Positions 10,278 to 10,433 of a DNA stretch of 11,793 nt are shown here, piece after piece. The notes under the pieces are model-generated. The model was given only the letters and a program-made list of their open reading frames with translations. It did no database searches and was not told the origin of the DNA. The position numbers were made by a program, and so were the translations under genes. How positions within the stretch are numbered: the stretch's first letter is position 1; every line of letters begins with the position of its first letter. The stretch is from an uncultured archaeon (GTDB taxonomy: Archaea > Iainarchaeota > Iainarchaeia > Iainarchaeales > DATDZZ01): contig CAYJVY010000018.1 of the NCBI GenBank assembly GCA_964373795.1, forward strand, positions 1 to 11,793. The letters are read 5' to 3'.

Positions 10278-10433
10278 CCAGCTGCAAGGTCTCGCGCGGT
10301 TTGCGCGAAACAGTTTCGTCGGCCGCTCTGCATCAGCCTCGCCGGCTGCGACGTCTCGTGCGTCGAGCACGAGGGCCGACGTCGGCCTTCAGCCTCGCCG
10401 ACTGATCGCTTCAGCCTCGCCGGCTGAACGGCG
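10278..10433. repeat. GC-rich mosaic repeat island D
   Basis: It fills the convergent gap between aIF2-alpha and PCNA. It carries three direct copies of (t)tcagcctcgcc[g/a][g/a]ctg at 10333-10348, 10388-10404 and 10410-10426. It has hairpins at 10292-10308 and 10355-10373 and the perfect palindrome ggccgacgtcggcc at 10374-10387. Its right end (10407-10435) matches the reverse complement of the left end of island C (6112-6140) at 22 of 29 positions. Confidence 0.85.

Follow-up and report, generated by a model that had tools for sequence, protein, structure and literature searches.

Much is known about small dispersed palindromic repeats in bacteria and in organelles. REPIN-RAYT systems have been stated to be absent from archaea (bioRxiv 10.1101/2022.05.22.493013). 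The CGTC-tagged REPs described by Di Nocera et al. 2013 (PMC3733652) have 8-9-bp stems that start with A-T pairs and a tail resembling CCA, and most of them form head-to-head dimers; they have been reported in bacterial phyla only. The GC clusters of yeast mitochondria (e.g. GC42) are built of units that merge, shuffle and recombine. No dedicated transposase is known for them and their mechanism of amplification is unresolved (PMC4478555). In the literature that we searched, no paper describes such repeats from DPANN archaea.

Here we describe repeats of this kind in the genome of a DPANN-type archaeon (1.29 Mb in 28 contigs, 30% GC). The stretch of DNA that was analysed, called the window, is 11,793 nt long and is the entire contig C18 of this host genome. 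It carries the archaeal housekeeping genes PriL, PriS, GINS, S27e, eIF2-alpha, PCNA, PAC2 and MscS, a TrmB-like regulator and a MazE-PIN pair, and a tRNA search found no tRNA in it. Its background of 25-35% GC is broken by four stretches of 58-69% GC, islands A, B, C and D. BLAST searches with these four islands, iterated to convergence, identified about 33 GC-rich islands genome-wide. They are 50-290 bp in size, amount to 3.9 kb in total and have about 62% GC on average (range 56-72%) vs. 30% for the genome. Their most conserved building block, and usually their end piece, is the hairpin M1 (TCAGCC-TCGCC-GGCTGA). We think that M1 is probably the signature and end module of a lineage-specific family of non-coding, non-autonomous, GC-rich mosaic palindromic repeats that act at the DNA level, similar to REPs and BIMEs or to GC clusters.

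Results and Discussion

A first-pass annotation had proposed that a 17-nt hairpin module is repeated in the window. Allowing up to 2 mismatches, we found 5 matches vs. 0 expected from 200 shuffles. Exact matches are at 4010-4026 (minus strand), 6303-6319 (plus) and 10410-10426 (plus), and those with one mismatch are at 10332-10348 and 10388-10404 (both plus). The diverged inverted copies claimed for island C are present at 6120-6136 and 6141-6157 on the minus strand (annotated as 6121-6135 and 6143-6157). Every copy that had been named exists, with coordinates correct to within 1 nt. A 13-nt tandem pair was also found as described, but its second copy sits at 6149-6161 and not at 6148-6160. 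The local reduplication is real: positions 6120-6160 form a two-copy tandem with 21-nt spacing, which TRF at score 30 did not list, and other islands contain 21/22-nt tandems of 3-4 copies. Genome-wide, the 15-mer core has 25 exact occurrences vs. about 6 × 10^-5 expected at the islands' own 64% GC composition, so its frequency is far above that expected for GC-rich sequence. At up to 3 mismatches M1 has 69 copies, all of which are within the approximately 33 islands (intergenic or at gene ends), and the reversed M1 pattern gave 0 matches in the genome. These results support M1 as a repeated hairpin-forming module. Its stem reaches up to 7 bp in the terminal copies, whose hairpins have predicted energies of -6.4 to -7.1 kcal/mol as DNA.

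The first-pass annotation missed that M1 does not stand alone. Within a larger grammar of fixed order, it is the module that connects the others and the one that closes the islands. When all islands are put in one orientation, the modules are M1, H6 (hairpin, 7-bp stem), P5 or P5b (perfect 14-nt palindromes that differ in sequence and share one slot), Q4 (TCAGCTG...), H3 (TCGCGC-GGCAA-GCGCGA), P1 (TGCCCAC/GTGGGCA) and H8 (CAAGG-GCTGAA-CCTTG). The long layout, of about 125 nt, is M1-H6-P5-Q4-H3-P1-M1-tail and the short layout is M1-H6-P5b-M1-(M1)-tail. The last two bases of M1 and the next 4-6 nt vary with the downstream module: GC+GACGT before H6, GA+TCGCT before another M1, TT+TGAC in the 21-nt tandems, GC+TCGGCG before H8 and GA+ACGGCG at the island end. 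Within 32 of the 33 islands all M1 copies are co-oriented, the tandems being head-to-tail with a 21/22-nt period, and the orientation of M1 agrees with that of H3 and H6 in every case. This constant co-orientation indicates that the islands are polar and go back to composite masters rather than to random concatenation.

In the window, the short type is represented by island D (10283-10433, plus), which lies between the convergent eIF2-alpha and PCNA genes and reads M1-H6-P5b-M1-M1-tail with an H3-like hairpin upstream. Its first M1 copy (10333-10349, plus; 17-mer match 10332-10348) has the junction form ...GGCTGC and is followed by GACGT, by H6 (10355-10373, plus; 7-bp stem, loop GTCGA, with CGTC just before it) and by P5b (10374-10387; GGCCGAC/GTCGGCC). 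The next copy (10389-10405, plus; 17-mer match 10388-10404) carries a G to A change, from GGCTG to GACTG, by which one stem pair is lost. The terminal M1 with the tail ACGGCG (10411-10433, plus) forms the sharp right end of the island, and the DNA beyond it is AT-rich. Island C (6105-6365) consists of two elements with their ends outward. Its right part is of the long type (P5-Q4-H3-P1-M1-H8), in which the M1 copy (6304-6320, plus; 17-mer match 6303-6319) is followed by TCGGCG and hairpin H8. The outward end of the left element is a terminal M1 variant plus tail (6114-6136, minus), with a T:A closing pair, a 7-bp stem and a 3-nt loop, located inside the last MscS codons; the 21-nt tandem partner of its 6120-6136 copy is a truncated M1 (...GGCTTT) at 6141-6157 (minus). 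The MscS reading frame (5232-6170) extends about 65 nt into island C, where the terminal M1 element supplies its stop and last codons. Island B (3975-4078, minus) lies between the divergent PAC2 and PriL genes and is a truncated short type plus H8, with an M1 copy at 4009-4025 (minus; 17-mer match 4010-4026). Island A (1-205, minus) is at the contig start and is without M1; it contains Q4-H3 modules, unique hairpins and an 18-nt tandem (158-195).

The two ends of the islands are different. The sequence GGCTGAACGGCG is found at 17 sites, of which 11 run straight into AT-rich DNA and 3 directly abut tRNA genes; 14 of the 17 sites are thus island termini. The end opposite M1+ACGGCG is ragged. The loop of M1 and the tail can pair as an alternative hairpin, CGCCG-GCTGAA-CGGCG, which overlaps the M1 hairpin and has the same loop as H8; the energy model slightly favours the M1 hairpin. 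M1 with its tail, foldable as two overlapping hairpins, may be the site that is recognised or cut by a putative trans-acting activity, and such an activity would seed new island copies. Neither the 14 terminal sites nor the left ends showed a recurrent target-site duplication or target motif. Non-palindromic hybrids of the left half of P1 and the right half of P5 or P5b are located at C3:99508-99600 and C5:106-222 of the host genome and at 36-49 of the window. They appear to reflect module exchange at the palindrome centres (ACGT).

The islands sit between tandem, convergent and divergent genes, and many begin 0-25 nt from a stop codon. There is no orientation bias: island direction is unrelated to gene strand or GC skew, and on C5 it alternates despite uniform skew and strand. 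For synteny, the complete genome of a relative, G017, was rebuilt from 63 pieces and 591 orthologues were mapped. The junction at C4:39190-39400 of the host has 209 nt with 58% GC vs. 8 nt in G017. In G017 the C9 and C16 junctions are AT-rich and have no island. In the related genome G001 PriL directly neighbours PriS, and in the host MscS and island C lie between them. These sequence comparisons show that the islands are insertions: the gene junctions that hold them are otherwise conserved in relatives. The divergent TBP/L21e spacer has an island in both the host and G001, with opposite M1 orientation and different modules, and is AT-rich in the relative G005. The presence of this island in both genera could mean long persistence, and hence function, instead of mobility.

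Several islands lie at sites that deserve separate mention. The stretches C7:95536-95590 and C8:1-66 of the host together make up one M1 tandem array with a 21-nt period, cut in two by the contig break, and the TBP/L21e island is split there. Because the TBP and L21e-Rpb4-DUF655 orthologues are adjacent in G001 and other relatives, the C7 end joins the C8 start. A 197-nt island with four M1 copies (C6:5271-5467) lies in the rRNA operon, in the spacer between 16S and tRNA-Ala, and must therefore be transcribed within pre-rRNA. Five or six islands are 0-25 nt from tRNA genes (Pro, Met, Leu, His and one probable gene without an aragorn call), as compared to about 2 expected by chance; tRNA-near islands are located at C5:76524-76676, C5:69917-69928, C3:27720-27745, C5:65540-65659 and C8:43938-44055.

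It had been claimed that one variant of the module covaries. For the covariation test, 45 M1 copies were aligned and pairs were counted for the M1 and alternative hairpins vs. shuffles. The covarying variant turned out to be a single both-sided change in the 6120-6136 copy, giving 1 compensated pair vs. 0.6 expected, and 239 of 500 shuffles were as high. Pairing in the aligned copies is at the level of chance, as 87.5% of the cells pair in the M1 hairpin, which equals the shuffled value. The alternative hairpin had 0 both-sided changes in the 45-copy alignment; two compensated variants of it, CACCG...CGGTG and CGCGG...CCGCG, occur elsewhere in the genome. Over the seven module types, the non-consensus stem pairs are 39 G-T, 25 A-C and 35 other, i.e. 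99 one-sided vs. 6 compensated. The "compensatory" variant is a single case without statistical weight and is no evidence for a selected RNA structure. We conclude that the hairpin potential is a property of the consensus and that its selective maintenance is not demonstrable. Three symmetric pair changes separate P5 from P5b, which occupy one slot; these changes are compatible with hairpins and equally with palindrome "correction" by fold-back synthesis. The commonest M1 variant, C to T at stem position 6, gives a G-T wobble and belongs to one sub-family. A strand-specific single-strand function was considered, as G-T vs. A-C is 19 vs. 3 in M1, but it was rejected: the excess comes from this one sub-family and the counts are otherwise 20 vs. 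22, so neither strand is favoured.

GC-rich islands in AT-rich genomes are a familiar signature of RNA genes, and functions such as mRNA 3'-end stabilisation are one documented role of REPs in bacteria. The hairpins might accordingly act in RNA, either in cis as 3'-end stabilisers, terminators or insulators of the neighbouring mRNAs, or as small structured RNAs. The many islands that start 0-25 nt from a stop codon and the one in the transcribed 16S-tRNA-Ala spacer would fit such a role, and palindromes fold whichever way they are oriented. However, an Rfam scan (E<=1) found no family at the gathering score, its one sub-threshold match (chrB-a, E = 0.063) being treated as chance, and the folding z-scores of whole islands are modest (-1.3 to -2.9). 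There is no covariation, and once the M1 sub-family is set aside G-T vs. A-C shows no steady strand asymmetry. Islands are found between divergent genes (island B and the TBP/L21e spacer), both orientations occur on a contig with nearly all genes on one strand, and module content varies from one island to the next. A structured RNA was rejected on the combined grounds of the Rfam result, covariation equal to shuffles for both hairpins, the 99 vs. 6 stem changes and the occurrence of both orientations whatever the gene strand or skew. We regard a role of the hairpins in RNA as improbable.

The distribution of M1 among relatives is narrow. The 16-mer at up to 1 mismatch is present 51 times in the host, 7 times in G001 and 0 times in 39 other genomes of the order. 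The soil MAG "archaeon isolate SMAG_U8205" (G001) is the one further genome of the host's family and belongs to a different genus. The 12-nt end has 17 copies in the host and 11 in G001. In 194 other genomes of the order it is at background only, a singleton being found in 16 of the 194, equal to the reversed-pattern control; these singletons are in DNA of 45-54% GC without M1 context. M1 with its tail (23-27 nt) is identical in 7-11 G001 copies, and the adjoining G001 modules are other hairpins. Housekeeping proteins of the host and G001 are only 54-81% identical. A non-coding 23-mer that is identical and present in many copies in both genomes points to sequence-level constraint or exchange. 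A related-loci search for close strains, aimed at filled vs. empty sites, returned distant relatives only. An origin from high-GC bacteria or viruses was rejected: more than 109 single matches (in genomes of 60-74% GC) and 2 viral contigs were found, none of which extends past the 22-nt query pattern, and they were treated as chance.

BIMEs bind IHF and gyrase. The islands may similarly be domesticated protein-binding or chromosome-architecture sites, with M1 plus tail as the operator of a family-specific DNA-binding protein. The exact conservation of M1 plus tail across genera is what such an operator would show, as is the island in the same TBP/L21e promoter spacer in both genera. Nevertheless, the copies decay freely, the numbers and positions of islands differ between the two genera, and the variable-length M1 tandems resemble slippage and not a designed site. 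We consider this reading very unlikely. That the islands are artefacts of assembly or binning, i.e. foreign high-GC fragments fused into AT-rich contigs, is hardly credible. Several of them are at contig ends (C18 start, C5 start, C7 end and C8 start), but most lie within long contigs and have intact genes on either side, the same module is found in the independent MAG SMAG_U8205, and the high-GC bacterial matches stop at the 22-nt query pattern. Moreover, real repeats break contigs, as where the C7 end and C8 start carry the halves of one M1 tandem array.

Gene order points to a rearrangement in the window. In four relatives the order is PCNA, PriL, PriS, GINS, S27e, eIF2-alpha and PAC2, then orf427 on the opposite strand. 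The window has PAC2 (minus), island B, PriL to eIF2-alpha, island D and PCNA (minus). Thus, as compared to the four relatives, the PriL-to-eIF2-alpha block is inverted and both breakpoints are in islands. Exactly at these breakpoints, islands B and D contain the arms of an inverted repeat of 52 nt with 87% complementarity, 6299 nt apart. The left arm (4006-4057) and the right arm (10357-10408) bracket the inverted 6.3-kb block. The chance that both breakpoints fall on islands is p ~0.03 (3 internal islands, ~14 junctions). Recombination between inverted copies may rearrange the chromosome, and the 6.3-kb inversion between islands B and D would be an example. In principle, an assembly error across the 52-nt arms, or a polymorphism of the population there, could explain the inversion. 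Over the genome, 16 of 26 junctions with an island are broken relative to G017 vs. 251 of 544 without one; with an odds ratio of 1.9 and a one-sided p = 0.09, which is not significant, the enrichment of islands at synteny breakpoints is a trend only.

Other local differences were noted in this region. TrmB (236-877) is co-oriented with orf427 in the window and divergent from it in the relatives G002 and G016, a second local rearrangement, beside island A. TrmB and orf427 are neighbours in relatives, where the MazE-PIN cassette is absent. The MazE-PIN pair (1037-1715) lies between the copies of a 31-nt direct repeat without mismatches (933-963 and 1761-1791) and between those of a second repeat of 34 nt with 85% identity (895-928 and 1832-1865); the pair looks like a small cassette insertion with flanking DNA duplicated. 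The PriS orthologue of G002 (C1:172038-173252) contains one in-frame TGA.

We searched for an enzyme that could mobilise the islands. No Y1/RAYT transposase (PF01797) was found in the host (95.8% complete) or in G001 (90% complete), and the positive controls were matched. One intact TnpB (Cas12f1-like, 385 aa) is encoded at C1:138100-139300 on the minus strand of the host, with AT-rich flanks, in a genome without TnpA. A RAYT or IS200 origin was rejected because PF01797 is absent from both genomes and the TnpB flanks are without M1. A retro-element origin, an idea taken from the one sharp and one ragged end, was rejected as no reverse transcriptase (RVT_1) domain was found in the host. The host also has one DDE gene on a 1.6-kb contig and two tyrosine recombinases.

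The absence of a transposase and of target duplications, the ragged end, the occurrence of both orientations, the half-palindrome hybrids and the mosaicism would also be expected if the islands were by-products of error-prone repair that uses no recognition site. They would then arise where breaks in intergenic DNA are mended by microhomology, break-induced replication or template switching off other islands, with fold-back "correction" of palindromes and a GC-biased conversion that holds their GC content high, and M1 would be the most successful unit and nothing else. The location of islands at an inversion agrees with this, and the same idea has been put forward for organelle palindromic repeats (PMC7043297, PMC4478555). 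Repair alone, however, leaves unexplained the sharp and invariant end GGCTGAACGGCG at 14 of 17 sites, as well as the 23-26-nt M1 plus tail that is perfectly kept in two genera whose other modules are all different. We hold an origin purely from repair to be possible, though unlikely.

Comparison with known repeat systems

The mosaic repeats defined by M1 resemble REPs, BIMEs and REPINs in that they are short GC-rich extragenic hairpins in tens of copies, form mosaics with other motifs, occasionally provide the ends of genes and are lineage-specific. They differ from the REPIN-RAYT systems in that the host and G001 are both without a RAYT (Y1) gene. M1 lacks the GTAG or CGTC tag of REPs and has variable 5' bases and a 3' tail of ACGGCG or TCGGCG. 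The M1 copies within an island are co-oriented, whereas BIMEs and REPINs are alternating or inverted doublets. With the CGTC REPs, M1 shares a palindromic structure, a 4-5-nt loop, the lack of a dedicated transposase and some intragenic copies; some CGTC REPs are in AT-rich obligate symbionts (Rickettsia RPE, Wolbachia), and the H6 hairpin of the host directly follows a CGTC. Unlike them, M1 has a 5-7-bp stem, the tail ACGGCG and head-to-tail arrays.

The yeast GC clusters and the hairpin repeats of organelles (sponge RHE, PMC2800124) are likewise GC-rich palindromic units in the intergenic DNA of very AT-rich compact genomes. The host islands are similar to GC clusters in using a fixed set of modules in varied combinations and in having half-palindrome hybrids. 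The yeast clusters have a putative AG target duplication and fewer stem than loop changes. The host islands show no duplication and have no measurable stem constraint, and they are on a cellular archaeal chromosome. The long type also recalls the PATEs of IS200/IS605 elements: M1 is near both ends in direct orientation, as are the end hairpins of the IS608 type, and neither a TIR nor a target duplication is seen, but in many islands the left end is undefined. In contrast to IS200/IS605, TnpA is absent from the host and G001, the lone TnpB is without M1 flanks, and the islands have no orientation bias and ragged left ends. The islands are best filed as a new archaeal family of the familiar palindromic mosaic repeat kind.

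Conclusions

The islands have a fixed module order and polarity, with one sharp M1+ACGGCG end and one ragged end; M1 multiplies locally with a 21/22-nt period, and the substitutions by which copies decay are uncompensated. The modules may be shuffled between copies by recombination, gene conversion or template switching. More speculatively, and in our judgment rather unlikely, M1+ACGGCG would be the recognition and cleavage end of a hairpin-guided mobile element, whose enzyme would be unrelated to Y1/RAYT and encoded by a gene restricted to this archaeal family, and whose inverted copies would also flip chromosome segments such as the replication-gene block.

A streamlined DPANN-type archaeon with 30% GC keeps dozens of hairpin mosaics of 60-70% GC against its AT bias and without a recognisable transposase. 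The islands have practical effects, as they break assemblies, add codons and stop codons, are present in promoter and rRNA spacers and are associated with an inversion of core replication genes. The 23-nt M1 plus tail, identical across genera, is a concrete handle for finding the enzyme responsible. If true, a hairpin-guided element with a non-Y1/RAYT enzyme would be a new mobilisation system in DPANN archaea.
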